64,000 nucleotides of DNA from Candidatus Woesebacteria bacterium. GTDB taxonomy: Bacteria > Patescibacteriota > Microgenomatia > UBA8517. Of the stretch, positions 1 through 64,000 are shown in pieces. The notes under the pieces were generated by a model. It searched no databases. It had not been told where the DNA came from and worked only from the letters and a program-made list of their open reading frames with translations. A program made the translations under genes and the position numbers. Numbering within the stretch: position 1 is the first letter of the stretch; each line of letters opens with the position of its first letter. The stretch is taken from NCBI GenBank assembly GCA_016700095.1, contig CP065002.1, positions 867,141 through 931,140 of the forward strand, written 5' to 3'.

Positions 1-1392
1 TTCGGATTTCTTTTCATAACCCAATTCTTCCACTTTGATTCTCGCGGTATCACCGGGATCAAATATATCCTGAACGTAACGCATCAACCACACTGTATTA
101 TAGGAAGCATCTAGATTTTCGAGATTAACCGTCTGCACTATTTTGTAATTACAGAGACTAAAAAATCCCTCGTTACACTGTTTATTGATATCAGTTTTTT
201 TACTTAAATAAAAGTTATAAGCTTCTTTCTGCGAGTCTTTCACAAATACAGTAGCTACTTTCCCCGAAGAGTTAAGTGATATGTAATCAACCGCACCTCG
301 CCAGTTCTCTCTTTGAAAACGAGTATTGGTTAGGTAGATAAGACTTGATGAGATATTAATAAATAATACTAAACAAATAGCGGCATATCCGAGCTTGGCT
401 TCTAGTTTACTAACACCCAGGCTAATAAGTAAATACAAAGCGGGTAGCACAAAAAGAAGCCTGAAGTACGAAAATACCGGGATCACCAGACCAATAATTG
501 AAGCAGTCAAAATAGGTATAAGTAGCCAGAACAGTAACGTTTTGCTCATTAAATCAATTTTCCGTATCTTAGGTAATGCATAAATTACAAGAGATGAATA
601 AACAATCCCGCAAAAAGCAGTAAGCGTGGCATACAAGTATTTGTTCTCAAAACTTATTCTTCCAAAAATAAATTTAGCAGGGAATATCGCAACTTCATGA
701 AAACTTGTTTTACCCAATATATTCCACCAACCTGGCGCGTTTTCTCGTACACTTAATCCCGATAGTAATTGCTTAATAAATAATGGAGCAAATACCGTGC
801 TTGCCAATCCAATTAAAATTAAAGTTACCGCAAATCGTTTAATATCCTTTCTGTCCCGTTTGATAAATACATAAATTACAAAAACCGGCAACATAAGAAA
901 ACTTAAGTAATGGGTAAATAATGCGAAAAAATATGCTATACCAAAACCGCGCCAATTTTTTGTAATAAGAAAATACACTGAAATTGATATTAAAAATGTT
1001 GCCAGAGAATACATTCTCGCTTCCTGTGAGTAGTAGATAAGTAATCCCGACGTCGCACTAAAACTACTTGCAATGATACCGACTTTTTTATTGGCTACTT
1101 TTTCACCAATTAAGTATGTTACAAAAACTATTCCCAGTGATGATATTAAAGAAATCATACGCAGTGACAACTCACTAACTCCAAACACCCCTACCCAAAA
1201 ATGCAAAACTAAATAATAAAATGGGGGGTGAAAATCGGAAGGTAAGAATTTGGTGAACAAGTCCGGCAAAGTATAAAATGTCGTAAGCACACTAGTTGCC
1301 TCATCAAGCCAAAGAGATTGGTTTATAGAAATTAGCCTTAATAATAAAGACAAAACGAGTATGAAAATTAATCCTATTCTATTTTTAAGCAT
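1..1392 (-). CDS. GT-C fold membrane glycosyltransferase, ArnT/PMT (GT39/PMT_2)-like. Partial: the C-terminus runs off the window start.
   Basis: Hand translation of the minus strand from ATG at 1392 gives MLKNRIGLIFILVLSLLLRLISINQSLWLDEATSV..., a short N-terminus, a TM helix, then a D-E pair, followed by many TM segments. No complete ORF is listed for 1..1429, so the reading frame is open to position 1. Confidence 0.6.
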   Translation of the reverse strand, partial: MLKNRIGLIFILVLSLLLRLISINQSLWLDEATSVLTTFYTLPDLFTKFLPSDFHPPFYYLVLHFWVGVFGVSELSLRMISLISSLGIVFVTYLIGEKVANKKVGIIASSFSATSGLLIYYSQEARMYSLATFLISISVYFLITKNWRGFGIAYFFALFTHYLSFLMLPVFVIYVFIKRDRKDIKRFAVTLILIGLASTVFAPLFIKQLLSGLSVRENAPGWWNILGKTSFHEVAIFPAKFIFGRISFENKYLYATLTAFCGIVYSSLVIYALPKIRKIDLMSKTLLFWLLIPILTASIIGLVIPVFSYFRLLFVLPALYLLISLGVSKLEAKLGYAAICLVLFINISSSLIYLTNTRFQRENWRGAVDYISLNSSGKVATVFVKDSQKEAYNFYLSKKTDINKQCNEGFFSLCNYKIVQTVNLENLDASYNTVWLMRYVQDIFDPGDTARIKVEELGYEKKSE

Positions 1393-1429
1393 TTACTTCA
1401 TGAACGTGTTGTGACTAGATCAGTCAACG

Positions 1430-2269
1430 TTATTTACCCATCTTTTTGAACAATACATACTCACAGATTCCCCAAAATACTCCAAGATCATAAACAATTT
1501 TAAATATCACGAAATTGATCGTCCTACTTTTAATAGACTTAACACAACCAACAACAAGGGAAACCGGCAACAAAGAGCGACTAAGTGCATATATTACTCC
1601 CAAAACGCCAAACTTATATTTTCTTTTACCAACCCATTTAGCTTGCGTAAATATTTCTGCCAGATTATCGGGATTTTCGTGGTAATATTTCGCTCCACTG
1701 ACAACCGACGCTTCGTAACCCAATTTGTCGCTAAGATAATCATCAGTATAATGCCCTCCGGGCAGAAATCCACCAACTCGGTCAAATTCCGACTTCAGGA
1801 GTGCTCTAAACACCTTTTGCTTGTCTGGATAATTTGTGGGGTGTCGTAGTTTTTGCGGCCAACCTTCATTAATATTCCAACACCGAGCCCATACATGTGA
1901 CCAATTGCTCACATATTCATTCTTACTAAAAGTTCCCTTTACTTTGTTTTGAACTATCGGTGTAACAAGATCGGTCAAGAATTTTTTATCAAACGTCATA
2001 TCCGCATCTAGAAAGACTAATATTTTCCCATTTGCTTTTTTTGCCCCCCAATTTCTTGCCATCCCCGGACCCTCATGGCGCTTTCTATAAATGTGTAGTT
2101 TGTAATTGTTAACCGTTACTTTATTGGCAATATCTACTGTTTTATCCTTCGATCCATCATCAACTACAATCACCTCAAAACGGTCAAAGTCTTGGTCGTC
2201 AAGCGAACGCAGGCATTTACTAATAACTTTTGCCTCATTAAAAGTCGGAATAACAATCGATACTTTCAT
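1430..2269 (-). CDS. GT2 (GT-A fold) glycosyltransferase
   Basis: N-terminal VSIVIPTFNEAKVI...VIVVDDGSKDKT...FLDADM (DXD) are hallmark GT2 motifs. 4-bp overlap with the upstream gene. Confidence 0.8.
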   Translation of the reverse strand: MKVSIVIPTFNEAKVISKCLRSLDDQDFDRFEVIVVDDGSKDKTVDIANKVTVNNYKLHIYRKRHEGPGMARNWGAKKANGKILVFLDADMTFDKKFLTDLVTPIVQNKVKGTFSKNEYVSNWSHVWARCWNINEGWPQKLRHPTNYPDKQKVFRALLKSEFDRVGGFLPGGHYTDDYLSDKLGYEASVVSGAKYYHENPDNLAEIFTQAKWVGKRKYKFGVLGVIYALSRSLLPVSLVVGCVKSIKSRTINFVIFKIVYDLGVFWGICEYVLFKKMGK

Positions 2270-3351
2270 ATGATTTTTATAAATAGTTTTTCGTATTCAC
2301 TAACTACAATGTCCCATGAATACCTCATCGCTTGGTTTCGAGACTTCTCTCCCCAATTTGTCTCCAGCGCTTTCGTTATTTCATGCGTAAAATCTTCTTT
2401 GTTTTCGGAATTAATAAATACTCCGGCATCACCTACAATTTCTCTGCGAATCGGATCATCAATAGTAACAATCGGGAGCCCACTTGCCATCGCTTCGACA
2501 AGTACAATACCAAACGCTTCCGACTCAAGGGGTACAAAAACAAATACATCTGCAGAACGATAAACCGACGGCATTGCCGAATGTTCAACCGAAACAAACT
2601 CAATTCGATCGCCAAGTTTTGCCCGACCCAACTTCGTCAGCTCATTTTTTAAATAGCCATTCCCCACTACAAGTAGTTGGTAATGATTGAGTCTGCTTAC
2701 ATTATCTATAACCAAATCAACGCGTTTGCATGGTACTAACGCATTTACAGTAAGTACAACAGGGTGCATCAAGGAGTGTTTATATTTTCTTCCTTGTGGT
2801 GAAAAACGCGCAAGATCAACACCGTTTGGAATATAAGTTGTTTTTACCAGAGGCATTGCCTTTTTTGCCCATACTTGGGCAAGTTTGGATATGGCAACAA
2901 AATAATCGGGAAAACTCCATAAGTTATTCCTATCGTCCCATCCAATTCCGGATTGCCCGGAGATAACCATTTTTGCACCGCTTAACCATGTCGCCAATCG
3001 CACCAGCGCGCATTGCCAGCCACCATTGAGCGGAAGAACAATATCATACTTATTCTTCATCAGTTTGGGGAATATTTTTAGAGTATGTATGGCAATTTTT
3101 CTACTCCAATAATCCATAAACCACCTACGTGCCAAAGTACCCGCCATATCTTTTTTATCCCAGTCTAATATTATTTCCGATTTGATAGTTTTGTAATTCA
3201 CTTTATTCTCTTTTGGTCCTGCTTGATACACAGTAACGTCATGCTTTTCACTCAATCTCTTTGCCAATTCATGTATAAACACTTCACCACCACGATTGAT
3301 TCCCCCAGAGAAAAAGCTTACAAATGCTATTTTTAATTTTTTCTTTTCCAT
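2266..3351 (-). CDS. GT4 (GT-B fold) glycosyltransferase
   Basis: C-terminal EAFGIVLVEAMASGLPIV motif (the E-x7-E region of GT4 retaining transferases). 361 aa. Confidence 0.8.
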   Translation of the reverse strand: MEKKKLKIAFVSFFSGGINRGGEVFIHELAKRLSEKHDVTVYQAGPKENKVNYKTIKSEIILDWDKKDMAGTLARRWFMDYWSRKIAIHTLKIFPKLMKNKYDIVLPLNGGWQCALVRLATWLSGAKMVISGQSGIGWDDRNNLWSFPDYFVAISKLAQVWAKKAMPLVKTTYIPNGVDLARFSPQGRKYKHSLMHPVVLTVNALVPCKRVDLVIDNVSRLNHYQLLVVGNGYLKNELTKLGRAKLGDRIEFVSVEHSAMPSVYRSADVFVFVPLESEAFGIVLVEAMASGLPIVTIDDPIRREIVGDAGVFINSENKEDFTHEITKALETNWGEKSRNQAMRYSWDIVVSEYEKLFIKII

Positions 3352-4724
3352 ATGCTTATATCTTCATCCATCATCCCACTTTCATTATAGTTTACCGTTA
3401 TCCATTTTGTTATTTCTTTTGGCTGATAAGTGCCCAAATCATACCAATTTCCACTTTTTGGTTGTGACCAAATGATAATTTCCGGAGGATTTAACTCCCA
3501 TGCGGCAATAGTGTTTTGTTGAACGTTGGGAATTTCCAAATACCAACCATAATTGTCTACCCACGGTTTTGGAGGTAAAGTTTTCGAGTACACATAAAGC
3601 GACGATGGTAATCCCATTAAGTAGACACTCTCTCCGTACGTAGACACATCACTAATACGATGCGCCAAATTAACGTCTTCGGTACCATAAAATCTAGTCT
3701 CTTTACCCCAATCGTTTGTTATTACTCGCGGGACAATTCCGATAACTAATAAGATACCGGAAATAAGCGCAATTCGTCTAACTTGCCTACTTCTATTTGA
3801 AAAATATGCGGTAAGAAGTATCAAAAAACACAAAGCCGCCTGGAAATGAAAAAACGAAAATCTTGGATAGACCGAAACGAAAGATCCACCGAGGAAAAAA
3901 AGTACAAGCATAATTGTTCGATCTTTGATAATTATATTTCTTGCCTTCACTACTCCAAATACCACAGGGAAAGACAGCAAGGTTAAAATTAGAATATCCT
4001 GGTTTCGCAGTTGCATTTGAACATAGCCGGGAAATTTACTCCAAAACGTGAACGGGTACCATACTACCCAATTTACAAAATATGCCAAGGATCCTTCGAT
4101 GGAAAGTTTAGTCAACAAAATGAAACCAAAGTAGAAAGGTGGAAAAAAAGACGACAGGATAGCTTTCTTGTTTCGCGAATAAACTACGATAAACAATAAG
4201 AATACAATTAAAAATAAACCGGCTGTTTGTTTAATTAAACACGCAATTGAGATAAAACTACTCGCAAGTGCGAAATCGGTCCACCGGGCACTTCCGGTAA
4301 GCGATCGTATTCCGAAATATGTTCCGGCAAGCAAAAATGGCACAAATGCCAAATCGAACCATAGCATATTACCGTCAAGGAAAGGTTGTAGTAAAACGTA
4401 ATAAAGAAGTGCCAACAACGAAATATGTTTATTACCGGTAAGCTTCGAGGCTATTAAATAGACATATAAATCGATAAATATAATAAATATCCAGGTTAAC
4501 AACTTTAAGGCAAAAACATTGTAACCCCATAATGAATACCACAAAGATAACATTCCCGTCAGCATTGGCGGGTATGGATGAATCATGTCCCCAAAAAGTG
4601 CAAATCCGTTATCAAATAAATATGGATATGCTAGCATTTCTGGCCATGCAGTAAATTTCAGACTACCAAGAAAAAACACATGAAGCGAAATTAGTAGTAG
4701 TAGGCCGACAATTGTTTTCTTCAC
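3333..4724 (-). CDS. Polytopic membrane protein, putative GT-C glycosyltransferase (PMT_2/DUF2029-like), with an extracytoplasmic C-terminal domain
   Basis: About 10 predicted TM helices followed by a roughly 130-aa hydrophilic W/Y-rich C-terminus. Sits in an operon with GT2/GT4 genes. No clear DE motif, so the family is uncertain. Confidence 0.45.
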   Translation of the reverse strand: MKKTIVGLLLLISLHVFFLGSLKFTAWPEMLAYPYLFDNGFALFGDMIHPYPPMLTGMLSLWYSLWGYNVFALKLLTWIFIIFIDLYVYLIASKLTGNKHISLLALLYYVLLQPFLDGNMLWFDLAFVPFLLAGTYFGIRSLTGSARWTDFALASSFISIACLIKQTAGLFLIVFLLFIVVYSRNKKAILSSFFPPFYFGFILLTKLSIEGSLAYFVNWVVWYPFTFWSKFPGYVQMQLRNQDILILTLLSFPVVFGVVKARNIIIKDRTIMLVLFFLGGSFVSVYPRFSFFHFQAALCFLILLTAYFSNRSRQVRRIALISGILLVIGIVPRVITNDWGKETRFYGTEDVNLAHRISDVSTYGESVYLMGLPSSLYVYSKTLPPKPWVDNYGWYLEIPNVQQNTIAAWELNPPEIIIWSQPKSGNWYDLGTYQPKEITKWITVNYNESGMMDEDISIWKRKN

Positions 4725-4733
4725 ACTTATATT

Positions 4734-5564
4734 CTACTTCTTAATACCGATAACAGCCAGGCTAGAACCACGTTTCGCGCAAGTTGTTATTAAATTGAAA
4801 GGCGCATAAACAATATTTTTGAAAAAGGCTTTTCTAAGGTTTACTAAATTAAATTTCATTAATGCACCTATACTTGCAACGTCAAAGATCCCCGACCATG
4901 AACCCCACCACACTATTTCAAATCCAGCTTTTCTGATAATCATTTTTAAGGTATTTGGTGTGAAGTGGTGAACGTGTTCATTGGGCATGAGATATCCCCA
5001 ATTATTACCCCGTATCTTTGCATCAAAACCACCGAAATTGGGAACATCGATATAAACCAAACCTTTTATTTTTAAAACCGCATAAATTTTTTTGACAACC
5101 GCGACAGGATCTTCAACATGCTCGAAGGTATGATTCATAATGACAACGTCGAAATAATTTAGGGGAAGTTTTGCTTTTTCGAAAGTCGAATTGGTTGTTT
5201 TAATTCCTTTTTTGTTCGCATATTTAAAAGACGCCGATGGTTCGACTCCCCACACCTGCCAACCATGATCTTTAAATATTGATAGCATTGTACCGGTTGA
5301 AGATCCGATATCTAAAATTTTTCCTTTCTTTTTGTATCTTGATATTGTTTGAAAGCGACGTATAAAAATATTTTTAAACAATTCTTCGTCACTTCGATAC
5401 TCTTTGTCATCGCGATGATAATTATCGTATTTTTCGAAATCGCGACAGTTAGTGCGCACTAAACCACATTCCAAACACTCTACAATGTCTTTTCCATTAA
5501 CTTCGAATAAATGTTTATACTTGTCCGATTTACAATATTTACATGTCATATTAATAACCAACAC
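4734..5564 (-). CDS. Class I SAM-dependent methyltransferase with an N-terminal CxxC...CxxC zinc ribbon
   Basis: CKYCKS...CLECG zinc ribbon, then motif I ILDIGSSTGTM and motif II VVIMNHTFEHV. Confidence 0.7.
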   Translation of the reverse strand: MLVINMTCKYCKSDKYKHLFEVNGKDIVECLECGLVRTNCRDFEKYDNYHRDDKEYRSDEELFKNIFIRRFQTISRYKKKGKILDIGSSTGTMLSIFKDHGWQVWGVEPSASFKYANKKGIKTTNSTFEKAKLPLNYFDVVIMNHTFEHVEDPVAVVKKIYAVLKIKGLVYIDVPNFGGFDAKIRGNNWGYLMPNEHVHHFTPNTLKMIIRKAGFEIVWWGSWSGIFDVASIGALMKFNLVNLRKAFFKNIVYAPFNLITTCAKRGSSLAVIGIKK

Positions 5565-6396
5565 CGGGAGTCAGGAGTTTTCTTTTAATTTTTTTAAGCG
5601 GTGTTTCAAATACAGCTCTTTTTTTGAATGAAGTTTTCATTATGCACCAAGGTGATCTAACAAAAGATGGTCGTTCTCTGAAAAAACTTTCCGGGTAATA
5701 GTAATTTTTTGCTACTTCAATTCCCATTTCATACTTTAGTTTTTTCTTACGTTTTGGTACCAACAAATCACCTTTGTCACCATGTGATCTTTGCAAAAAA
5801 GTCATATGCATATAGGGGGCGTGTATAAATTTGATTTTACGCGCAGATCTGTCCTGAATCATCTTCTTGTCCTTATCCGACCAACCCCATGTACCATGTG
5901 GATTTGTCGACGATAGACCGGGAATCATTCTGTTTATTCCCCTTAATCCCAAATGACCCTTTTTCCCCGCAATTTGATAATTGCCAGCGCTTTCATCCTG
6001 GTAATGAAAGATATCTCCTACCATATTTATACTGGGAACAAACACTGACTCGTACGTGAGTCCTCGTACTTGTCTTATGAAATCCGTAATGTCGCGTATT
6101 GATTTTTCCCACCATACTTCATCTGCATCCACAACCATAAACCAATCCGTATTTGTCGCACTTAACATGTCGGCTCGAACCTCTCTGAATTGTTCCGGAT
6201 TAACTTCGCCAACTAATTTTAGATCGATTTTATTAGGATAACGGTGTTTCAACTCTTTAGCAATTAACACACTATCATCCGTACTCCCCGTATCCCACAA
6301 CAACAACTTGTCAACGTAATCAATTACGCTTTGTACCGAATACCACAGAAAACGGTCTTCATTTTTAAATAAAGTATGTACTGATATGGTGTTCAC
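5551..6396 (-). CDS. GT-A-like glycosyltransferase (DXD-containing), family uncertain
   Basis: TLFKNEDRFL...LLWDTGSTDDS...FMVVDADEVWW matches the GT-A nucleotide-sugar binding layout. Confidence 0.5.
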   Translation of the reverse strand: MNTISVHTLFKNEDRFLWYSVQSVIDYVDKLLLWDTGSTDDSVLIAKELKHRYPNKIDLKLVGEVNPEQFREVRADMLSATNTDWFMVVDADEVWWEKSIRDITDFIRQVRGLTYESVFVPSINMVGDIFHYQDESAGNYQIAGKKGHLGLRGINRMIPGLSSTNPHGTWGWSDKDKKMIQDRSARKIKFIHAPYMHMTFLQRSHGDKGDLLVPKRKKKLKYEMGIEVAKNYYYPESFFRERPSFVRSPWCIMKTSFKKRAVFETPLKKIKRKLLTPGVGY

Positions 6397-7697
6397 TTTG
6401 ATTTATTAAACTCGTAAATTACACATACATAAGTTGCGATAAACAAAAATAAATTACTTAATCCTCCAACTATTACCGGAGCAAAAACACCTCGTGTCGG
6501 CGTTAGATATATGATGCCCAAAATTACAAACGGCAGCTGAATAAAGGTAAGCAAAGTAATGAGTTTAGGCTTCGAAAAAGCGTATATTAACAAATTAACA
6601 GACGGCACCGACAACATAAAAGGAATAGATCCGGCAATAAGCCATTTTAATAAACCACTTGCAACACTGTACTTGTCACCAAAAAACGCTATCACATACG
6701 GAGATACTACGATTCCCGCAAGCAGACCAAAACACATGAGTACAGTCAACCATACAGTCTTCATGAAATATTTTTTTAAGTCATTACTTTTCAAACTGGC
6801 ATATCTCGGAGCTAACACTCTCGCAAAACTTCCGGCAAGAAGCGGAATTCCAAACGACAATTGTCTTGCGGCAGAAAATATCCCTGTTTGGTAGGGCGTC
6901 AAAACTTGCAGTAATAAAATCGTATCAATTCGCCCATTTACGGCACCAGCGATACGTGACAACGCCATCCAAGAAGAAAAGTTAACAAACCCCTTCTCGA
7001 TATTTTTATAATTAATACGAAAAACTACCTGTGTTTTTTGCCAAAAGAAAGCAATAATAAAGGAAATAATATAGCTACCTGCATATACCATCATCGTATT
7101 TATTAACGTCAAGCCAAAGAATGACGACATCATTAAAGTTAGTGCAAGTCTGATTCCACCAATCAACATACTCAAAAGTGCTGATAATCCAAAATTTTTC
7201 TGCGATTGAAAAACTTGTATTTGAAAATCGACAATTAGAAAACCTGCAATCGCCAAGGCCGAAAACACGGTAAGCATCTTTTCTTCTGACTTTAAAACAA
7301 ATGATGAAATAACAGGCGACAACAAAGTAAGCACGACGATAAAAATACAAGCCGAAATAATACGTATTGCAAATACCGTATTTAGAGTTTCTTGTGCTTT
7401 GTCAAACTTTTTTTCTTTCAAATAGTTGGAGACATATCTAAACAAAGTTGATCCCAAACCCATATCACCTATCGCTATCATTATCGCAATGAAACTTAAT
7501 GCAGCGGAAATAATACCGAAAAGTTCAGGTCCCAGTTCTCGTCCGGCAAGTATCGTAAACATAATCGTAAATAATGATGCAATTATGCTCCCCATAAAAA
7601 GAACAGCTGTATCTTTAAAAGTATTTGAGAGAATGATGTTTCTAATTTTTGTTATCATGTTGAACTTTTTTTTCAGGACTAAACCAAAGCGCGACAA
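6393..7697 (-). CDS. Wzx-like oligosaccharide/polysaccharide flippase (MOP superfamily)
   Basis: 434 aa with about 12 TM helices. The N-terminal region with K/R-rich loops is typical of the polysaccharide biosynthesis protein (Wzx) family. Sits inside the glycosylation operon. Confidence 0.6.
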   Translation of the reverse strand: MSRFGLVLKKKFNMITKIRNIILSNTFKDTAVLFMGSIIASLFTIMFTILAGRELGPELFGIISAALSFIAIMIAIGDMGLGSTLFRYVSNYLKEKKFDKAQETLNTVFAIRIISACIFIVVLTLLSPVISSFVLKSEEKMLTVFSALAIAGFLIVDFQIQVFQSQKNFGLSALLSMLIGGIRLALTLMMSSFFGLTLINTMMVYAGSYIISFIIAFFWQKTQVVFRINYKNIEKGFVNFSSWMALSRIAGAVNGRIDTILLLQVLTPYQTGIFSAARQLSFGIPLLAGSFARVLAPRYASLKSNDLKKYFMKTVWLTVLMCFGLLAGIVVSPYVIAFFGDKYSVASGLLKWLIAGSIPFMLSVPSVNLLIYAFSKPKLITLLTFIQLPFVILGIIYLTPTRGVFAPVIVGGLSNLFLFIATYVCVIYEFNKSK

Positions 7698-10350
7698 TGG
7701 CTATAACAACAAGAGACAATGTCGTGTAATACAAACCCCATCTTACATACACTTGTGGTCCGAATTCCAGTTTATATGGAGAGTTTGATGGTTTTATATA
7801 AAAAGCATTTACCATGGAATACGCTGGGATGCTTAATGACGTACTTTGTAAATATGTAATTCTCCAACCGGGATGGAATGCGTCGGTAAATACAATCCAT
7901 CCGTTTTCTTTTTGTGGACTTAACTCATACACAGTCGGGTTTTTCTTTTCAAATTCTAGATTGCTAGATGCGGGTGGTTTATCATTTGTATCATCAGCAT
8001 ACACACGCACACCAAAGTGAGCCATGTAAGTCGAGGAATGGTTTTTTGCTTTATTCCATTCATCGGCGGTAATAAGTGCGACTGTATTAACAGAATTTAT
8101 TCCACCTAGATTTGTAATCGTAAGTTTATTGTCACCATCAAATAGTTTAATGCCTTGTGTGAACCATCTGAATTGCGTCTCACCACTATCTTTATTAAAA
8201 GCTTCACTTACAATCTCACCTTGTTCATTGCCTATTTCATATCTTAATTTCGAATCCATGCCCCCCAAACTTCGTATCGCAAGAATATAACTGGCATCCT
8301 GTACTTCGCCAAAATTAACGACAATTTTTTCACCAATTTTTTCTGAGAGAAATGATCCCAGACGATAATCAAAAGTTTTTGTTTTAATGCCTCGAATTAA
8401 TAACTGGTATTTAAAATCTAAATATTTATCATTATTAAAATACGCCCATTCACTCGCAAATTTTTTAGGGTCAACATAATCCTTTTGTAGAAAAGTCATT
8501 GTAAAATCATCCTCGTTGGTTCCATTAAAAATAATGGTTGCGCTTTCTGAAGCAATTTTATCCAGCAAAAGCGGATTCCACAGACCGTCTTCGAAATACG
8601 CGTTGATTTTGTTAGGCAAACCATCATCGCCAAACTCGGTTTCAATCTCAGGTCCGACTACAGCCAGTAGTTCATCCGCCTTAAATATTCTTGGTACACT
8701 ATTATCAATTTTATAAAAGGAAATATCGTTACTGTCGCGTTCTTTTTTCAACTCAGTATTATTGTTTAGTGCCATTTGCAATCTGTTCCAATCTTTTTGT
8801 TCTTCTCCATTTAACTTATATGGATTTCTGTGATCTTTGGATAATACAAGATACTTAATTCCCAACAATCGATACCAAGCTATATATTTATCGGTTTGAT
8901 AAATGTAATTATATTTATCTGAACTTCCAACAGTCAGATTAGCCAGAGGTCGAAGATTAGGCATATCACTTGCATTTAAAGCTGGGTTGTTCTCGGTTTC
9001 AAAGGTCGAAGGATGTTTGTCCGGGAACCAGAGTGAGCGATAATATTCATGATCCTCACTTAATATGGTGTTTATTTCACTTAGTTCATCGGGGTAATTT
9101 CTTATCGACAAAACAAAATTCATATTCCCGAGCATCGCCGGCGCTACCAGGAAGAGTAGATAAATATACGCAAATAAAGTAATACTTTTACCAAGAAGCG
9201 TATGTTTTGACAACTTGTCGCAAATTGTAGTTAGAAAACTACCCATTGAAATTCCCGCAAGTAACATTACCGGAACAAAAAATTTACTGTTATCTCGAAA
9301 CGACTCACCAAACGGTAAATTCGTTACTGCAAACGAGTATATATTTCCCATTGGCGGAGTTGCCCCCTTAAGTAAGAAAATCAAAAATAGCAAGATAAGA
9401 ATGATTTTAAGTTCACGCTTATCTTTACTGCTAAACAAATTTCCAAAAACCGTAACAGGAATTAGTAAAAAATACCATGCAGGGTACGTGATTTCGCCAA
9501 AGATATTTTTATACCAATGAGGCTGATAGAAAAATATGCCGTTCACAAACGAAATAAAATTCAAATTGGTGACAAAGGAAGCTGAATTTTCAGGATGAAT
9601 TTTTACTAAAGGAATTATCCAATACGAATTAATACATATCCAAGGCAACACAATTAACAATAGATTTTTTATTATCAAACGCCATTTACCGGGTGCTTCG
9701 ATAAAACCCACAAGTAATGCAACAAAAAGAGCAATCAATGCGATCCGTGGATCGGCAATCGTATTTAGAGTGAGAACAAAAAGAGCAAGGAAATATTTTT
9801 TCGGGGATAATTTGGAAATAACGTTGGTTAGTGTCAGTATCGTGAATGGAAATATTCCATAAGAAAGTGCAACACCAACCTGACCACCATCAATTAGTAG
9901 TATGAAATATGTATTTAGTGTGTAAAACAACGAAGCAAAAAACCATACCAACGGTGGATACTTTAATTTTTTTGCAAGATAAATAGGCCCAATAAGTGAA
10001 AGGATGATTGCTGGGAAGAAAAATAATAAGTTAATGATTATATTGTTGGGCAAACCGAGGTATTTACCCATAATTCCATAGAGCATTAGGATTGGTTTAA
10101 TAAAAAGCCTCGGATCGATTGTTCCTAAATTACCATCTCTGTTTATCCAGGAATACGGTTCACTGAAAAGATCGGTAAACTCACGATTCGTAAAGTTGGG
10201 TGCATCACCCCACGACAAATCGGTGTGAATAATGAGGGGATAGAAAACGATAATAACAGGAATAAGTAAACCAATAATAAAAAACGCTACATCGGCGACC
10301 TTATAAGTCCCTGGTATATTAATGCGAATCTTGTCAGTTTTCTTTTGCAT
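7642..10350 (-). CDS. Giant polytopic membrane protein (902 aa), putative GT-C glycosyltransferase (AftD/YfhO-like architecture) with a large extracytoplasmic C-terminal domain
   Basis: About 14 TM helices in the first 420 aa, then a roughly 480-aa soluble region. The N-terminal loop carries a WGDAPNF...D-rich motif. Confidence 0.45.
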   Translation of the reverse strand: MQKKTDKIRINIPGTYKVADVAFFIIGLLIPVIIVFYPLIIHTDLSWGDAPNFTNREFTDLFSEPYSWINRDGNLGTIDPRLFIKPILMLYGIMGKYLGLPNNIIINLLFFFPAIILSLIGPIYLAKKLKYPPLVWFFASLFYTLNTYFILLIDGGQVGVALSYGIFPFTILTLTNVISKLSPKKYFLALFVLTLNTIADPRIALIALFVALLVGFIEAPGKWRLIIKNLLLIVLPWICINSYWIIPLVKIHPENSASFVTNLNFISFVNGIFFYQPHWYKNIFGEITYPAWYFLLIPVTVFGNLFSSKDKRELKIILILLFLIFLLKGATPPMGNIYSFAVTNLPFGESFRDNSKFFVPVMLLAGISMGSFLTTICDKLSKHTLLGKSITLFAYIYLLFLVAPAMLGNMNFVLSIRNYPDELSEINTILSEDHEYYRSLWFPDKHPSTFETENNPALNASDMPNLRPLANLTVGSSDKYNYIYQTDKYIAWYRLLGIKYLVLSKDHRNPYKLNGEEQKDWNRLQMALNNNTELKKERDSNDISFYKIDNSVPRIFKADELLAVVGPEIETEFGDDGLPNKINAYFEDGLWNPLLLDKIASESATIIFNGTNEDDFTMTFLQKDYVDPKKFASEWAYFNNDKYLDFKYQLLIRGIKTKTFDYRLGSFLSEKIGEKIVVNFGEVQDASYILAIRSLGGMDSKLRYEIGNEQGEIVSEAFNKDSGETQFRWFTQGIKLFDGDNKLTITNLGGINSVNTVALITADEWNKAKNHSSTYMAHFGVRVYADDTNDKPPASSNLEFEKKNPTVYELSPQKENGWIVFTDAFHPGWRITYLQSTSLSIPAYSMVNAFYIKPSNSPYKLEFGPQVYVRWGLYYTTLSLVVIAIVALWFSPEKKVQHDNKN

Positions 10351-10496
10351 GTAATGTTAATTTATAAATTGTTAATCCAAGCAAACCAAGGTAGAGGTAT
10401 TTTGATAATTGAATTGCCCGACCGGGGTGATGTGTGGCAAGAAAAAAACAAACTATAAATAGAATTACCGATGTTATACTTACTAATACACGTTTC
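10351..10496. promoter_or_regulatory. Divergent intergenic region between the 902-aa GT-C gene (minus) and the YfhO/GT39 pair (plus). Presumed bidirectional promoter.
   Basis: This is the only strand switch to plus for multi-gene transcription in the first 30 kb. AT-rich with TATAAT-like hexamers. No experimental support. Confidence 0.3.
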
Positions 10497-34712: not shown

Positions 34713-34714
34713 GT

Positions 34715-48465: not shown

Positions 48466-48513
48466 ACAATCTTGTACGATTATACTGCAGAAAAATGAAG
48501 CGATACAGCGCAA

Positions 48514-51177: not shown

Positions 51178-51210
51178 ATTATTTATTGCGTTATTACTTT
51201 GCTCTTTACG

Positions 51211-54182: not shown

Positions 54183-54308
54183 TTTCTGGTGACTAAAGCT
54201 ATTGAACACACATCTCAACTAAAAGACGAAGCTATAAACGACAACATCGATGCTCATATAATTGACGCGGTGTTTGGTAAAACAAAGACCGTGAAGAAGT
54301 TTTATTAA
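54183..54308 (+). other. In-frame continuation of the fumarase-family ORF after the TAG (41 codons), retaining homology to the fumarase C-terminus
   Basis: FLVTKAIEHTSQLKDEAINDNIDAHIIDAVFGKTKT is read in the same frame immediately after TAG. This parallels FumC ...[25 protein letters not shown].... Confidence 0.45.
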
Positions 54309-55177
54309 GACTTAATACTCCCTACCCAATACTTCCAATAAGCAAGGGGGAAGTGCATCGCCGAGTAAGCTGACCACAGAAAACCGCGAATTCCATCTTT
54401 GTAACCTTTGTGGCGGATAAATAACATAACAAAAAGATAAGTGGGTTTAATAAATGAAAAATACATAAATTTCCTTTTATTTTTTTTGATTCCAACTTTT
54501 TCCATTTGTCCAGCCGTTATACTTGTATATCTATCGGCGCGATAAAGATAACGATCCAAAGTAGGAGATTCATGGTGTTCAAGATCATTAAACAACCAAG
54601 CAATTTCCCCATCAACTTCCATCAGTTCATGAACGCTTTTGGCAGGTAAACGAGCTTTCCCCTGTTTAATTAAACGAATTACGGCATCCGGATAAACTCC
54701 TGCATGCTTAAGCGGTTTACCGACAAAGTAATTTATACGAGGAATAAAAAATGCACATATTTCACCGGTTTCTTTTCCCAAAGAACCATCTCTTTGCCTA
54801 ATAATTTTTTCGTGTCTTTGGAATAGCTTCCATTTTTTAAGATCTATAATCTTCCTTGACCTTATTTTGTCGTCGTTATTATTTAATATGTTTTGTATTT
54901 CAATTGCTAATTCCTTGGAAACTCTTTCGTCAGCATCAAGTTGTAATATCCAATCTCCTTTTGCTTTTTCGATGGCAAATTGCTTTGTCTGATGGAAGTT
55001 TGTTGTGTGTTTGAATTCATATACTTTAGCACCACATTCTCTGGCAATTGCTATAGTTTTATCAATTGAACCATCGTCAACCACGATTATCTCATCAGCA
55101 ATTGATTTTACGGACAGTAAACAACTTTTTATATTATTTTGTTCGTTTTGAACCGCAAGAACAACTGATAATTTCAT
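54305..55177 (-). CDS. GT2 glycosyltransferase
   Basis: LSVVLAVQNEQNNI...IIVVDDGSIDKT...LQLDADERV (DXD). Confidence 0.75.
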   Translation of the reverse strand: MKLSVVLAVQNEQNNIKSCLLSVKSIADEIIVVDDGSIDKTIAIARECGAKVYEFKHTTNFHQTKQFAIEKAKGDWILQLDADERVSKELAIEIQNILNNNDDKIRSRKIIDLKKWKLFQRHEKIIRQRDGSLGKETGEICAFFIPRINYFVGKPLKHAGVYPDAVIRLIKQGKARLPAKSVHELMEVDGEIAWLFNDLEHHESPTLDRYLYRADRYTSITAGQMEKVGIKKNKRKFMYFSFIKPTYLFVMLFIRHKGYKDGIRGFLWSAYSAMHFPLAYWKYWVGSIKS

Positions 55178-55183
55178 AGTGAA

Positions 55184-56608: not shown

Positions 56609-56626
56609 CTATAGCTGGTTTTCATT

Positions 56627-57904: not shown

Positions 57905-57906
57905 AA

Positions 57907-59553
57907 TTAATTTGCTACAATTTTATAAGCGGTACTACCATTTGGAAACTTAATAGTCTTAACAATATTAGCCGCATCAGGAATTTCCTCATCAGTCCCA
58001 ACTATGAGTGAATTAGGATAAGTGTTGGGGGTGTTGGGCCATTCAATTGAATTAAATCTAAACTTTTCAAATTCTCTGACAGTTGAAAAACCATACCCAT
58101 CACGAGGGGACAAAACATGTGCTCCCTGAAATTCGGCGGTGGGAACTTTGAGATAAAACAAAGTTAAAATGTATGGTTGATCATACCGATCAGTAATAAT
58201 TATATAATCAAACTCATCTTTCACACTTTCAACATAAGAGATCATTTCTTGAAATCCGTATTGCGAAGAATAAGGATATGCACGAGGCATGTGAAAATTA
58301 TATAAATATTCATATCTCGCAAACGACCAGACTAACATGATGAACATAATTGGAAATAATGTGTATTTTAATAAAGTATTTTGTTTAAATATATTAAGCA
58401 TGTTTGTCAAACCATATGCCGATATAAGGCAAAGGGGTATTATCATGTTATGAGAACGAAGTGCATGTGGCGATTGAAAAGTTAATGCGGCAGCAAAAGG
58501 AGCAATCAAAAGCCACCAAAGCATAAAACTCCATTTACTATTTACTCCTCTTGAAATGAAATAAAGGCCAGCGATCAAAAGCAGTGAATCAATCAAATAC
58601 ATCTGGCCGTGGTCGGGGACTTTATTGCGTTGAATATCATCGCCTGATATAAACAAAAAGTCTCCCGAGAAGTGCTCTCCCCAATTTTCTGCAATCGCAA
58701 TAGCATAATTTACGAGTTTGTTGTGGATTAATTCAGCCACTAGACCATCAACGTTTTCATGTTCGCCGCGCTGTTCATTAATTTTATTTAATGGTCCAAT
58801 ATCAGCAAATATTCCTACTCCGGCGGCACGCGACATACCTGCCTCTCCGGTTAAATCTTTTGCAAGCGGCAGCAGAAGGACCAATCCGAAGATCCCAGCA
58901 ATTAGTATGGGTTTAAAATTTTTCAGTAAATATTTAAAATTACTAAGTACATATCCAAGTAATAAAAGTGGGATCACAATTCTTGCGGCATGATAAGTAT
59001 ATAGGCCAAGGACAAAAAACAAAGATGAGTATTTGAAATACCTAGTATTCTTAGCGGATTTCACCAGGAACAAGACACCTATTGTTATAAAAAACGTAGC
59101 AATATTTACTTCCCATCCACCTCTTGAAAAATGTATATGCCACGGAGAAATAGCCAAAAATAATGCTGCAATAGTAGGAAAATCGAGTGTCAAATTTAAT
59201 ATTTTTATTTTTACGTCTTTTCCGCGTAGTTCTTTGGCTAATAGGTAGATAAGAATAATAGTTGCAGTTCCCATTAGCGCGCCGGGGGCTCTTACCACCC
59301 ATATGTTAAGACCCAATAGTTTAACAAACGGCAATACAATATAGAAATATAAACCTGGTTTATAATCATTAAACGATTGGAAGTGAAGCGGCCATGCGTT
59401 GCCGTGTTCATCCATTCCTGTATTTACCAAACTCCAAGCATTGTAACCAATTGCAGCCTCGTCGGCGTTTAATGCAGGCAATGTGTTTAATCTATTAAAT
59501 CGCAAATACAACCCTAAAATTAGTATTAATATTATCAATATGTTTTTTCTCAT
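57907..59553 (-). CDS. GT-C glycosyltransferase, ArnT/PMT (GT39/PMT_2)-like. Tandem paralog 1 of 4.
   Basis: LRFNRLNTLPALNADEAAIGYNAWSL (DE motif), WHIHFSRGGWE motif, about 12 TM helices. Confidence 0.7.
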   Translation of the reverse strand: MRKNILIILILILGLYLRFNRLNTLPALNADEAAIGYNAWSLVNTGMDEHGNAWPLHFQSFNDYKPGLYFYIVLPFVKLLGLNIWVVRAPGALMGTATIILIYLLAKELRGKDVKIKILNLTLDFPTIAALFLAISPWHIHFSRGGWEVNIATFFITIGVLFLVKSAKNTRYFKYSSLFFVLGLYTYHAARIVIPLLLLGYVLSNFKYLLKNFKPILIAGIFGLVLLLPLAKDLTGEAGMSRAAGVGIFADIGPLNKINEQRGEHENVDGLVAELIHNKLVNYAIAIAENWGEHFSGDFLFISGDDIQRNKVPDHGQMYLIDSLLLIAGLYFISRGVNSKWSFMLWWLLIAPFAAALTFQSPHALRSHNMIIPLCLISAYGLTNMLNIFKQNTLLKYTLFPIMFIMLVWSFARYEYLYNFHMPRAYPYSSQYGFQEMISYVESVKDEFDYIIITDRYDQPYILTLFYLKVPTAEFQGAHVLSPRDGYGFSTVREFEKFRFNSIEWPNTPNTYPNSLIVGTDEEIPDAANIVKTIKFPNGSTAYKIVAN

Positions 59554-59555
59554 AA

Positions 59556-61268: not shown

Positions 61269-61321
61269 GTTACTGACAAAATCTAATTTGCTCTTTGCGA
61301 TATATAATTCTAATTGACAAG

Positions 61322-63148
61322 CTATTGATTAGCATATATTTCAAAGGCGGGTTCATTATTCAAAAAGTATACAGTTTCGTATTTTTTCCATCCACTAGGC
61401 ATATTTCCGGGTGAGGTGATTAACAAACATTTTATTTCATTGCAATTAATATCCCCACCACTTTCAAGCACAAAGTGGTTTTCTTCTCTATCGCCACTTT
61501 TTATTTGCCAATCATTGACAAAATAAAACTTATCAAATGCATCTACCCAAAACCATTCCGTTTGCTCAAAACGAATGAGATTCGGATCATTCCGATACGA
61601 CTCGGGTTTCCATCGCCATGGCGCCCCACCCCCAACCCCTCCGTAGAAAAGAAAAAATTCGTGAGGTTCACCGTATTTTTTAGTCACTATTATTTTGTCG
61701 TAATCGTAATAGTACTGTTTAGTGTATTGAACTACTTGTTGATACCCGTATTGCCAACTCCATGAATAGTTACTTCTATATGAAGTAAAGTATCCATGCA
61801 AATAGTTCTCGGCGGATAAGATTATCAAGAAAATATAAATTGGTGTTATTATCCATGCCATATTTTTTAAAGTTATACGTTTTCCCTTGTTAACGAAATT
61901 CATAAACGTTAAATAACCAAATGCAGTTATAATCATTGGTGAAGGAAGCATTGTCGAGGAACGTAAAACATGTGGTGCTTCCCGAGTAATACTCGACGCA
62001 ATAGGTCCGACAAAAAACCAAAAAAGAATAATATTTCCTACTCTGTTTTTTAGTCTCAACAAAGCAAAGACTCCGATTACAAGAAATATTGCGTTAATAA
62101 TATAGAGTAACCCGTGTTTGGGAACGCTAAACTGATATTGACTACCGCCGTCGGTAAACAAATAATCACCCTTAAAATGAGATGTCCAATTGCTTGCTGC
62201 CTTTTTAATAAAAAATGTTCCCTTATTATGTAAAGCCCGTGCTATAAACGGACTATAAGGTGATGAATTTCGTAATTCATCAATTTGTGCAATTGCACCC
62301 TCGTCAACTATTTCCACTTTACTGTATCTAGCTTGTCCAGCAGGATTAACCAATTGAGCAAACATGGAAGCTGTAAAGAAAAAGAGAATGATAAACGAGA
62401 ATTTTACCAAATGTACATTTCTAAGATAAATCCCTGCAATTTCCAACCTATAACCTAAAACTAAAATTACGACAAACAAGGGAACAAATATCCTTGCTGA
62501 ATTGTAGGTCCAAACGGCTAATCCAAAAAATACTGCCGACCAAACTAAATTCATATATTTTTTCTCTGCCGATATTAGCAAGTAGGTCGCAAACGTAATG
62601 AAAAAGAGCGCAAGATTAGCCTCAAAAGCTGCACGGGAAAGAAATAGTGTCCAGGGTTCAATAGCAACAAGAAACGCTGTAAGTAAAGAGAGATTTTTTA
62701 ATCTTTCTTTTGACGCTATTTCGTTTTGGAAAAGCGTATGTGTCAAGAAATAAGAAACAATTACCAACCCGACACCGGCAAGCATTGAGGGTAATCTCAC
62801 TGCTAGTGTATTTACACCAAATAGTTTTTCCGATAATGCTGTAACATAAATATACACCGGCAATTTATAATCTCCATAAGCACGAAATATTGTTGGCATC
62901 TTCTTACCCCATTCGTCATATCCCGAAGAAAGAAGTGAATATGCATTATAACCATGGCTCACCTCATCCCAATTTAGCGATGGGGGTGTATTGTCAATAG
63001 CTACAAACCGTACAAGAATGGAAAAAACCACAATAGAAAGAAGTGTCATGTTTTTTGTGTTTCTTACTTTGTGAATTACAGGACACGATAAAACACCCCG
63101 ACCACAATTTCGCAGTAAATATTTTATAGTTTTTCTCATAGATTTCAT
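61322..63148 (-). CDS. GT-C glycosyltransferase, ArnT/PMT (GT39/PMT_2)-like. Tandem paralog 3 of 4.
   Basis: DNTPPSLNWDEVSHGYNAYSLL (DE motif). Multiple TM helices and a soluble C-terminal domain. Confidence 0.65.
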   Translation of the reverse strand: MKSMRKTIKYLLRNCGRGVLSCPVIHKVRNTKNMTLLSIVVFSILVRFVAIDNTPPSLNWDEVSHGYNAYSLLSSGYDEWGKKMPTIFRAYGDYKLPVYIYVTALSEKLFGVNTLAVRLPSMLAGVGLVIVSYFLTHTLFQNEIASKERLKNLSLLTAFLVAIEPWTLFLSRAAFEANLALFFITFATYLLISAEKKYMNLVWSAVFFGLAVWTYNSARIFVPLFVVILVLGYRLEIAGIYLRNVHLVKFSFIILFFFTASMFAQLVNPAGQARYSKVEIVDEGAIAQIDELRNSSPYSPFIARALHNKGTFFIKKAASNWTSHFKGDYLFTDGGSQYQFSVPKHGLLYIINAIFLVIGVFALLRLKNRVGNIILFWFFVGPIASSITREAPHVLRSSTMLPSPMIITAFGYLTFMNFVNKGKRITLKNMAWIITPIYIFLIILSAENYLHGYFTSYRSNYSWSWQYGYQQVVQYTKQYYYDYDKIIVTKKYGEPHEFFLFYGGVGGGAPWRWKPESYRNDPNLIRFEQTEWFWVDAFDKFYFVNDWQIKSGDREENHFVLESGGDINCNEIKCLLITSPGNMPSGWKKYETVYFLNNEPAFEIYANQ

Positions 63149-64000
63149 TTTAAAGCAAATTCCGTCGAACTGGGATTAACAAAATAAATCGCCGTCTCGC
63201 CACTGGGATAAGCAACTTCATACTCAGGTACGGTATTTAATGGAAATTCTTCTTTCTTTCCCACCAGTAATGTCTTACCTAAATATTTTCGTTTTTCGAA
63301 ATCAATATTTTCAAACTTGATATTTCCCAATGAATAACTTCCAAGTTGGTCGAGAAATTTTAAATTTAGATCGCGATATCTACCCCAATTTTTTGCTTCA
63401 CCTTGAACCATCTTAGGGTCATATTCGTTGTAAAAGGCAAAATAAATATGGGGTTCGGAAAGTGTACGACTCACAATTATAAACTGATATCCTTTTATAT
63501 TATTTAAATACTTAACCATGTCCTTTCTTCCATAAAGCATAGATGGCGCGGTGACGTAAGCCGACTTGCCAAAATACTGATAAGAAAACTCAATTAAGTT
63601 AAAACCAATAAGTGCTGCCAATGTAATTACGAGAAGTCGTCTTTGGGGCACCGACACATTATCAATTCTAATAAGTGTGAGTATCCAATAAGCACCAATT
63701 GCCATGGCAATTTGTAAGGCAGGAAGCATTATCACCGATCTGTTACCAGCAAAACCGACACCTGTAGACAGCGCTGCAGGAATCGGAGCACACACTAACC
63801 AAAAAACAATTAACCACATCTCCTTCAGGTGTCTATACTTAACCACGCCGACAAGAAATGCAAAAAGTAGTATCAATTCAAATGGATAGATTACTCCACG
63901 GCCCGGTATCATTCCATACGTCGCTTCGGCAGGTCCGTGGTCTACGAGAAATTTGAGTGAATAGTATTGTTTATAGTTTTCAAAGAATCTATTAGTAGTA
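63145..64000 (-). CDS. GT-C glycosyltransferase, ArnT/PMT-like. Tandem paralog 4 of 4. Partial: the N-terminus lies beyond the window end.
   Basis: Hand translation shows the frame stays open upstream of the internal Met at 63912 to the window end (...NRFFENYKQYYSLKFLVDHGPAEATYGMIPG...). WLVCAPIPAALS aligns with WWLLIAPFAAALT and WLLLAPLPSALS of paralogs 1 and 2. Confidence 0.6.
   Translation of the reverse strand, partial: TTNRFFENYKQYYSLKFLVDHGPAEATYGMIPGRGVIYPFELILLFAFLVGVVKYRHLKEMWLIVFWLVCAPIPAALSTGVGFAGNRSVIMLPALQIAMAIGAYWILTLIRIDNVSVPQRRLLVITLAALIGFNLIEFSYQYFGKSAYVTAPSMLYGRKDMVKYLNNIKGYQFIIVSRTLSEPHIYFAFYNEYDPKMVQGEAKNWGRYRDLNLKFLDQLGSYSLGNIKFENIDFEKRKYLGKTLLVGKKEEFPLNTVPEYEVAYPSGETAIYFVNPSSTEFALK

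Follow-up and report, generated by a model that had tools for sequence, protein, structure and literature searches.

How many membrane enzymes for the transfer of sugars does a bacterium with a 1.27 Mb genome keep, and what might it build with them? The question is raised by a stretch of 64,000 nucleotides (the window) from a metagenome-assembled genome (MAG) of Candidatus Woesebacteria, which belongs to the Microgenomates group within the Patescibacteria group. Patescibacteria, whose genomes are minimal, presumably live attached to other cells, and their surfaces are little known. A previous reading of the letters alone (the sequence-only reading) had counted 16 genes for GT-C-type glycosyltransferases in the window. 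On the evidence of Pfam, paralogy, profile-profile comparison and structure prediction we arrive at the same number: the window contains 16 GT-C-type genes, 14 complete and two cut by the window ends, which together cover 29,896 of the 64,000 bases (46.7%). We find familiar enzyme classes in an unusually large, lineage-conserved and GT-C-dominated supercluster.

Every open reading frame (ORF) of at least 150 amino acids (aa) was scanned against Pfam, and the ORFs cut by the window ends were recovered separately. Ten of the 16 proteins (genes are named here by their first coordinate) lie above the Pfam gathering score, nine of them in the CAZy GT39/GT83-like families PMT_2 (PF13231) or PMT (PF02366), namely 1-1392, 3333, 12490, 28919, 36689, 55184, 57907, 61322 and 63145 onwards, and one in GT-C_AftD. 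Another three fall below the Pfam threshold and are tied to GT-C by paralogy or by profile-profile matches. The last three are without a GT-C Pfam match; 7642 and 23351 were settled by predicted structure and 25318 by paralogy. The 16 genes are the following:

1..1392, minus strand: GT-C, PMT_2-type, 479 aa; PMT_2 33.6 bits on the full-length copy L001:5196-6635; 'LWLDEA' after the first transmembrane segment (TM1)
3333..4724, minus strand: GT-C, PMT_2-type, 463 aa; PMT_2 34.0 bits; ortholog in 34 of 46 related loci
7642..10350, minus strand: GT-C giant, 902 aa; AftD-like transmembrane (TM) domain, CBM6-like beta-sandwich ectodomains, C-terminal TM anchor
10434..12458, plus strand: GT-C, YfhO-like; YfhO (PF09586) 24.1 bits against a cut-off of 28.5, at the C-terminal end only
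12490..13980, plus strand: GT-C, PMT_2-type, 496 aa; PMT_2 37.3 bits, TMEM260-like 21.5 bits; 'TADEA' motif
15081..18038, minus strand: GT-C, AftD-like, 985 aa; GT-C_AftD (PF11847) 31.0 bits against a cut-off of 26
18022..19680, minus strand: GT-C, 'FAQDEW' type; PMT_2 18.1 bits, sub-threshold
23351..25321, minus strand: GT-C, 'YFWxDD' family without a Pfam model, 656 aa; by predicted structure
25318..27987, minus strand: GT-C, 'YFWxDD' family with an F5/8 type C (discoidin) ectodomain, 889 aa; F5_F8_type_C 43.6 bits
28919..30994, minus strand: GT-C, PMT/PMT_2-type, 691 aa; PMT_2 41.0 bits, PMT 40.0 bits; 'HADEG' motif
36689..38773, minus strand: GT-C, PMT_2-type, 694 aa; PMT_2 32.3 bits
55184..56608, minus strand: GT-C, PMT-type, 474 aa; PMT 26.9 bits against a cut-off of 22.7; 'TADEY' motif
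57907..59553, minus strand: GT-C, PMT_2 tandem paralogue 1; PMT_2 28.6 bits
59556..61268, minus strand: GT-C, PMT_2 tandem paralogue 2; PMT_2 24.7 bits, sub-threshold
61322..63148, minus strand: GT-C, PMT_2 tandem paralogue 3; PMT_2 31.1 bits, PMT 28.7 bits
63145..64000, minus strand: GT-C, PMT_2 tandem paralogue 4, C-terminal part; PMT_2 43.3 bits on the longer copy L002:3-1667

The gene at 1..1392 has its last ~15 codons to the left of the window and an ortholog in 30 of the 46 related loci; the ORF of paralogue 4 runs past the right window end. Paralogue 2 (59556) is paralogous to both 57907 (BLASTP E 5e-69) and 61322 (E 1e-61). The subfamilies of the sequence-only reading stand as well: two AftD-like giants, one YfhO-like protein, the 'YFWxDD/FAQDEW' trio and ten PMT/PMT_2-like proteins, which correspond to the eight it had so classified plus two. 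By a crude hydropathy scan, the 14 complete proteins would each span the membrane 7-11 times and end in tails of 100-480 aa; the GT-C superfamily is characterized by ~8-16 TM helices and an extracytoplasmic domain. Fifteen of the 16 have a positively charged or very short N-terminus, then TM1, then DE, DD or D within ~5-25 residues; the sixteenth, whose N-terminus is cut off, shows 'TPDE'. By the positive-inside rule, the first acidic loop would face outward. Acidic residues of this loop are invariant in three family alignments (D49 in that of 7642, D29 in that of 23351, and D31/E32).

The models of 7642 and 23351 predicted with AlphaFold2 (AF2) each consist of a helical bundle and beta-rich ectodomains, and in Foldseek searches they resemble solved GT-C structures. 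That of 7642 (predicted local distance difference test, pLDDT, 88.4) was built with 45 homologues, in all of which D49 is invariant. Its top match is AftD, 6W98 (E 5e-13), followed by STT3, PglB and DPY19, and CBM6-like modules match the ectodomain; a profile-profile comparison (hhalign) links it to the AftD-like 15081 at 98.3%. We observed no Pfam GT-C match for 7642, and no Wzy_C match even at E<=10. GenBank labels its protein (QQS38601.1) 'oligosaccharide repeat unit polymerase', a name that is misleading because the predicted fold and the profile links are those of an AftD-like GT-C_A enzyme. We accordingly rejected a Wzy-type polymerase as its identity, with AftD, STT3 and PglB as its structural neighbours. 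The protein encoded by 15081, which has an ortholog in 24 of the 46 loci, carries the NCBI name 'DUF3367 domain-containing'. Mycobacterial AftD proper has ~1400 aa, 16 TM segments, three carbohydrate-binding modules (CBMs), a bound acyl carrier protein and arabinan as its substrate. At 902 and 985 aa, and with ~10% identity and a TM-score of 0.52/0.37 between 7642 and 6W98, the two giants are therefore AftD-like and not AftD orthologs.

Directly downstream of the AftD-like gene, all four genomes examined carry a gene for a multi-TM protein of 121-143 aa (L003 9462-9830, L004 6912-7277 and L051 3434-3865 in the relatives). The copy in the window is the following:

14708..15112, minus strand: small multi-TM protein, 134 aa; no Pfam match

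Possible roles for it are those of a partner subunit and of a small flippase.

The YfhO-like gene at 10434 is tied to the same fold through its family: 16 of 50 homologues match YfhO (best E 1e-15), and its family profile aligns to that of 7642 at 98.2% (E 4.6e-14), against a probability of 8.8% when the single sequence was compared with the 7642 family. Its longest ORF has 674 aa from a GTG start and the GenBank protein 617 aa, and the true start is uncertain. The 'YFWxDD' family was recognized as GT-C from the model of 23351 (pLDDT 92.9, with 60 family members), which matches PglB, ArnT, EmbA/B, AglB and STT3 at a Foldseek probability of 1.00. An exhaustive HMMER search counts 1160 representatives of this family; a word-indexed homologue search had recovered just three relatives. 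Gene 25318 is paralogous to 23351 (BLASTP E 1e-19), and 18022 aligns to the 23351/25318 family at 96.4% over 490 columns (hhalign). A discoidin domain is present in 45 of the 60 family members, which makes this the commoner form, and 5 of the 60 have a PMT_2 match. NCBIfam gave weak, far sub-threshold matches only (Agl23, MmpA) for the GT-C proteins. From the Pfam, paralogy, profile and structural matches, we conclude that all 16 membrane proteins are GT-C-type and that no transporter is among them.

Is such a locus peculiar to this genome? Using the 7642 family as query against one genome for each GTDB species, we obtained 46 loci; those with interpretable titles are all Woesebacteria, Blackburnbacteria, Daviesbacteria or Microgenomates. 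Many GTDB MAG records with the cluster bear the title 'uncultured Gammaproteobacteria bacterium', and one bears that of 'Woesearchaeota archaeon'; both look like placeholders or mislabels. In the left ~20 kb of the window, the core runs from the giant through a Wzx flippase, a GT2, a methyltransferase and the 3333-like GT-C to a GT4. Among the loci from Microgenomates species genomes 35 were informative, and 31 of them keep this order (7642-6393-5551-4734-3333-2266). The core usually continues with GT2, PMT_2, GT4 and GT4, and ahead of it lie AftD-like and YfhO-like genes, in some cases with an 18022-like one.

For the right-hand side, we scanned metagenomes with the four tandem PMT_2 paralogues and compared 38 loci of at least 12 kb. 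Relatives of these paralogues occur in at least 541 metagenome stretches, with orthologs of paralogue 1 (57907) 44-57% identical. The order of paralogues 4-3-2-1, (flavin adenine dinucleotide (FAD) oxidoreductase), GT2, (short-chain dehydrogenase, SDR), GT4, Wzx, PpgS-like GT2 and GT4, where brackets mark genes present in some loci, is kept in 31 of the 38 loci, and six more are merely cut by contig ends. A 54305-like GT2 directly follows the PMT_2 array, in some cases with the FAD oxidoreductase between, in 37 of 38 loci (the exception is L066). Loci uncut by a contig end have 4-6 tandem paralogues. Since the tandem paralogues are 27-33% identical to one another, as against 44-57% to their counterparts elsewhere, the duplications are ancient and have been retained as a set.

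The two flanking blocks are thus conserved across the lineage, on the comparison with other genomes that the sequence-only reading had called for. Its judgement that the locus is highly unusual holds in relation to model bacteria; within Microgenomates the same blocks occur at the same density, with 196 GT-C-like ORFs in 834 kb (one per 4.3 kb) in the 46 left loci and 179 in 705 kb (one per 3.9 kb) in the 38 right loci, compared with one per 4.0 kb in the window. We stress that both samples were picked for having a GT-C and reach 10 kb to each side; they establish the modules as normal for the lineage and do not tell how frequently both occur together with a GT-C-rich middle. For the two flanking modules, the conserved gene order contradicts the suggestion of a combinatorial or variable system. 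Only the middle third (~21-43 kb) differs between relatives and looks variable or less conserved: the region was not seen beside the giant gene in relatives, and a relative that is 44-53% identical places its 25318-like gene immediately upstream of the AftD-like one and lacks the ~7 kb that separate the two in the window. A truncated FdtA remnant at 20736-21050 points to gene turnover in the middle of the locus. The relative L051 has three extra genes that are absent from the window, for a DUF2304 small membrane protein (4566-4913), an MptA_B_family GT-C (6588-7853) and a VTT/DedA-domain protein (17802-18494).

What surrounds the GT-C genes? The window proteins are exact matches to GenBank QQS38601-QQS38642, which come from a MAG contig of 1,274,238 bp. 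There are 48 ORFs of at least 150 aa, plus the two cut by the window ends; the coding fraction is ~95%, most of it on the minus strand in long runs of genes whose stops and starts overlap. About 47 of the ~50 genes are glycan-related, in agreement with the sequence-only reading of a locus devoted to elaborate envelope glycan work, and its accessory counts were exact: 11 GT2 (five of them polyprenol-phosphate-sugar synthase-like), 4 GT4, 2 flippases (Polysacc_synt, Wzx) and 4 methyltransferases. Its description of a single contiguous locus needs two corrections. The only unrelated genes, ppaC and purB, lie on the opposite strand and split the locus, which also extends past both window ends. The DNA of the window is also found on two Logan contigs, one of which reaches 8,571 bp further left and the other ~800 bp further right; within 8.6 kb to the left lie at least one further PMT_2 gene and one Wzy_C gene. 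The glycan locus is more than 73 kb long, and the window is most of it. Besides the genes given above, it contains the following:

1430..2269, minus strand: GT2 with two C-terminal TM helices; Glycos_transf_2 116 bits; position conserved in relatives
2266..3351, minus strand: GT4 (GT-B); Glycos_transf_1 93.9 bits; conserved core gene
4734..5564, minus strand: S-adenosylmethionine (SAM) methyltransferase; Methyltransf_23 100 bits; conserved core gene
5551..6396, minus strand: GT2; Glycos_transf_2 34 bits; conserved core gene
6393..7697, minus strand: Wzx-type flippase, 10 TM; Polysacc_synt 73 bits; conserved core gene
13977..14705, minus strand: GT2, polyprenol-phosphate-sugar synthase-like; AglJ 76.5 bits (2-199/293), Dol-P-hexose transferase 2-191/213
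19670..20707, minus strand: GT2 with two C-terminal TM helices; Glycos_transf_2 74 bits
20736..21050, minus strand: FdtA/WxcM-like sugar ketoisomerase remnant, 104 aa; FdtA positions 2-57 of 131 only
21107..22050, plus strand: two hexapeptide acyl/acetyltransferases, 155 and 159 aa; Hexapep 85.6 and 56.1 bits
22047..23156, minus strand: UDP-GlcNAc 2-epimerase, WecB-like; Epimerase_2 125 bits, wecB 118 bits
28044..28808, minus strand: GT2, polyprenol-phosphate-sugar synthase-like; AglJ 70.7 bits, PpgS 57 bits (2-204/226)
30991..32651, minus strand: two SAM methyltransferases, 316 and 242 aa; Methyltransf_11 91 bits, Methyltransf_23 51 bits
32694..33614, plus strand: GT2, PgfS/ArnC-like, two C-terminal TM helices; PgfS 246 bits (1-304/308), ArnC 162 bits (8-310/316)
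33615..35605, minus strand: two GT2, 365 and 296 aa; Glycos_transf_2 101.6 and 104.8 bits
35750..36688, plus strand: GT2, ArnC-like, two C-terminal TM helices; ArnC 173 bits (4-292/316), PgfS 128, AglJ 94
38776..39549, minus strand: SAM methyltransferase; Methyltransf_11 76 bits
39650..40897, minus strand: GT4; Glycos_transf_1 143.8 bits
40894..43293, minus strand: DegT sugar aminotransferase and NAD-dependent epimerase/dehydratase; DegT_DnrJ_EryC1 366.6 bits, Epimerase 135 bits
43701..44312, minus strand: DUF5667 protein with N-terminal signal/TM; DUF5667 45.3 bits
44387..45532, minus strand: GT4; Glycos_transf_1 124.5 bits; conserved in right module
45534..46400, minus strand: EamA/DMT membrane protein, candidate lipid-sugar flippase; EamA 108 bits
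46431..47213, minus strand: GT2, PpgS-like; PpgS 53.9 bits (3-198/226), PgfS 56.3 bits; conserved in right module
47200..48513, minus strand: Wzx-type flippase; Polysacc_synt 56.6 bits; conserved in right module
48514..49539, minus strand: GDP-mannose 4,6-dehydratase (Gmd); GDP_Man_Dehyd 372 bits
49698..50813, minus strand: GT4; Glycos_transf_1 105 bits; conserved in right module
50806..51954, minus strand: cupin (123 aa) and short-chain dehydrogenase (247 aa), of probable use in sugar-nucleotide tailoring; Cupin_2 33.9 bits, adh_short 151 bits
51992-54182, plus strand: ppaC (Mn-dependent inorganic pyrophosphatase) and purB (adenylosuccinate-lyase-type); unrelated to glycans
54305..55177, minus strand: GT2; Glycos_transf_2 67 bits
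56627..57904, minus strand: FAD-dependent oxidoreductase, PRK07233 family; NF005560 399.7 bits against a cut-off of 252

In most relatives the 54305-like GT2 is followed directly by the SDR or GT4 genes, where the window has ppaC and purB between. An ORF of 190 aa antisense to ppaC (52306-52878, minus strand) has no family match; it is probably spurious, and we do not count it as a gene. The tail of the FdtA-like ORF resembles, by eye, the C-terminus of a DegT aminotransferase, and the ORF is probably a deletion-fusion remnant. The DUF5667 protein, which is secreted or anchored and has a high content of K, E and L, is found in relatives too, next to both of the conserved modules (e.g. L004 9229-9789), and could be a scaffold or an acceptor. 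The FAD oxidoreductase sits between GT-C genes and recurs in 9 of the 38 right-module loci; we speculate that it might modify a lipid-linked sugar in the manner of DprE1.

The five synthase-like GT2s (13977, 28044, 32694, 35750 and 46431) cover most of the polyprenol-phosphate-sugar synthase models, and three of them adjoin GT-C genes (13977 by 12490/15081, 28044 by 28919/25318 and 35750 by 36689). Their presence in the locus is circumstantial evidence for polyprenol-phosphate-linked donors, which the GT-C enzymes may use.

From these observations, we consider it probable that the window is most of a locus with which an envelope glycoconjugate is assembled or decorated outside the cytoplasm, lipid-linked sugars being the building blocks. 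The enzymes with their fold class, the gene order and its retention within the lineage are shown directly; which donors and acceptors are used, in what order the steps proceed and what the EamA protein does, we infer as follows. Cytoplasmic enzymes (GDP-mannose 4,6-dehydratase, DegT aminotransferase, epimerases/reductases, UDP-GlcNAc 2-epimerase, acetyltransferases and methyltransferases) would make modified nucleotide sugars. The five ArnC/PgfS/PpgS-like GT2s would then load single sugars onto polyprenol phosphate, while the GT4s and the other GT2s would build lipid-linked oligosaccharides. The two Wzx flippases, possibly with the EamA protein, whose candidacy as a flippase comes from its likeness to ArnE/F, would carry the lipid-linked sugars to the membrane's outer face. 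There, at least 16 GT-C enzymes, each specific for a donor, an acceptor and a linkage of its own and several of them equipped with carbohydrate-binding ectodomains, would transfer the sugars onto a growing envelope polymer, surface proteins or both.

In working logic, the closest analogue is the assembly of mycobacterial arabinogalactan and lipoarabinomannan (LAM) by EmbA/B/C, AftA-D, MptA/B, PimE and Rv3779 with PpgS. There too, many GT-Cs outside the membrane use polyprenol-phosphate-sugar donors for one complex envelope polymer, as we propose here. Both systems include AftD-like giants with carbohydrate-binding ectodomains (by structure match for 7642 and by Pfam GT-C_AftD for 15081) and PpgS-like GT2s beside GT-C genes, and a relative's cluster holds an MptA_B_family gene. 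In contrast to mycobacteria, no decaprenyl-phosphate-arabinose pathway genes were found among the window ORFs, the giants have 900-985 aa rather than ~1400 aa and only ~10% identity to AftD, and the host is a monoderm-like bacterium of the candidate phyla radiation (CPR). The mycobacterial genes are also more dispersed, whereas here 16 GT-Cs lie in 64 kb.

Next closest are the three-component systems (ArnC-ArnE/F-ArnT; CsbB/GtrB-GtcA/GtrA-YfhO/GtrC; Streptococcus mutans PgfS-PgfM1-PgfE-PgfM2), which share the logic of a GT2 lipid-sugar synthase, a flippase and a GT-C transferase. PgfS/ArnC can be aligned over their whole length to the proteins of 32694 and 35750, and a YfhO-like and ten PMT_2-like proteins are present. 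Unlike these systems, the window has no GtrA-family flippase among its ORFs and has 16 GT-C genes to five synthase genes; its candidates for a small flippase are the one EamA/DMT protein and the conserved 134 aa membrane protein. All matches to the three-component enzymes are below equivalog cut-offs, and no protein of the window qualifies as an ortholog of a named enzyme in these or the mycobacterial systems. With the Wzx/Wzy loci for O-antigen, capsule and S-layer glycans, the locus shares Wzx, Wzy_C (to the left), GT2s and GT4s, tailoring enzymes and methyltransferases; typical loci of this kind are dominated by GT-A and GT-B enzymes, with at most a ligase or polymerase as membrane glycosyltransferase, whereas GT-C enzymes take up 46.7% of the DNA here, and no initiating phosphoglycosyltransferase was found in the window. 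A complete Microgenomates genome has been described with 29 glycosyltransferase genes (PMC7143001), the only related remark that a full-text search of the literature returned; neither this cluster nor any other GT-C cluster in CPR turned up in that search.

Could the locus be something else? That most of the membrane proteins are transporters or unrelated permeases, the alternative named by the sequence-only reading itself, we regard as next to impossible. It could draw on the low-ranking major facilitator superfamily (MFS) transporters in the Foldseek list for 23351, and on searches against PDB sequences, in which neither single-sequence phmmer (7642, 25318, 15081, 28919) nor three family profiles gave a usable GT-C match (best ArnT, E 0.16). 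A sequence-level search of the PDB is, however, too insensitive for these families; ten of the proteins exceed the gathering score of a GT-C family, the others are linked by profile-profile matches of 96-98%, and the Foldseek matches of the predicted structures effectively refute the idea. A strain-variable island of combinatorial glycan diversity, serving for example phage evasion or host recognition, is improbable, though less remote. The differing middle third, the ~7 kb that a relative lacks before its AftD-like gene, the turnover evident in the FdtA remnant and the range of four to six PMT_2 copies between loci would all suit it. The flanking modules, however, keep their content and order in dozens of species genomes and metagenome contigs, and the paralogues are old. 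The G+C content is even across the window (32-39%), which contains no tRNA genes and no phase-variation repeats (one weak tandem repeat only), and the Pfam scan of its ORFs found no integrase or transposase domains. Because of the uniform G+C and the lack of tRNA genes, integrases and transposases, we also rejected an origin as a mobile element or foreign island.

The most probable of the alternatives is that the GT-Cs are mainly protein O-glycosyltransferases in the style of PMT or of S. mutans Pgf, acting on S-layer proteins, pilins or other surface proteins, with the 4-6 tandem PMT_2 paralogues forming hetero-oligomers as eukaryotic Pmt1-Pmt2 do. We think this possible and rather doubtful. 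Ten proteins match PMT/PMT_2, one of them also TMEM260-like, the GT2 at 32694 matches PgfS over its full length, and there are similarities to Pmt4 as well; the co-ordered and conserved set of paralogues suggests joint action, and a secreted DUF5667 protein is conserved beside the cluster. PMT_2 is nevertheless a broad family that also includes lipid- and glycan-directed enzymes such as ArnT, there is no MIR domain and no identifiable gene for an acceptor protein, and several of the enzymes have CBM or discoidin ectodomains. The Wzx, Wzy and many GT4 and GT2 genes suggest that a polymer is assembled on a lipid carrier; given the carbohydrate-binding ectodomains, the Wzx genes and the Wzy_C gene nearby, at least some of the enzymes are more likely to act on a glycan, as AftD/Emb do. 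Several points weigh against envelope glycoconjugate assembly as we propose it: the similarities to PMT/PMT_2 and PgfS fit protein O-glycosylation equally well; structures were predicted for two of the 16 GT-C proteins, and the TM counts come from a crude scan; no polyprenol-phosphate-arabinose or other specific donor pathway can be named from the window genes; the five synthase-like GT2s all fall below the NCBIfam equivalog cut-offs, so that only the enzyme class is supported; and Pfam scans of the window ORFs detected neither an initiating phosphoglycosyltransferase of WecA/PglC type nor, small ORFs included, a GtrA-type flippase. Assembly or decoration of an envelope glycoconjugate nonetheless remains the reading that we favour.

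The conservation of gene order in both modules (31 of 35 and 31 of 38 loci) argues for an essential, lineage-wide function, and with both flanking blocks conserved the locus is probably the standard envelope sugar-coat factory of the lineage rather than a one-off or a peculiarity that varies between strains. More speculatively, and with more doubt than conviction, we hypothesize that Microgenomates may possess an envelope heteropolysaccharide or glycoprotein layer of the grade of mycobacterial arabinogalactan, built wholly outside the membrane by ~17-20 conserved GT-C enzymes, among them the widespread 'YFWxDD' family and a conserved, co-ordered set of 4-6 PMT_2 paralogues, the latter joined in a single hetero-oligomeric machine. 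No denser GT-C system would then be known from a bacterium, and it would be a defining trait of the lineage, possibly of relevance to interaction with a host.

Domain libraries and databases had missed (23351/25318, without a Pfam model) or mislabelled (7642) two sizeable GT-C families; the locus also yields conserved operon definitions and invariant, putatively catalytic residues. The cluster is real and notable for a genome of 1.27 Mb, more than 5% of which is spent on one glycan locus, with almost half of that DNA encoding GT-C enzymes; its seeming rarity disappears within the lineage to which it belongs. Since the modules are retained in Woesebacteria, Blackburnbacteria, Daviesbacteria and many metagenome contigs, the envelope glycoconjugate would seem to be essential and to define the lineage, and it could govern attachment, phage susceptibility and cell integrity.

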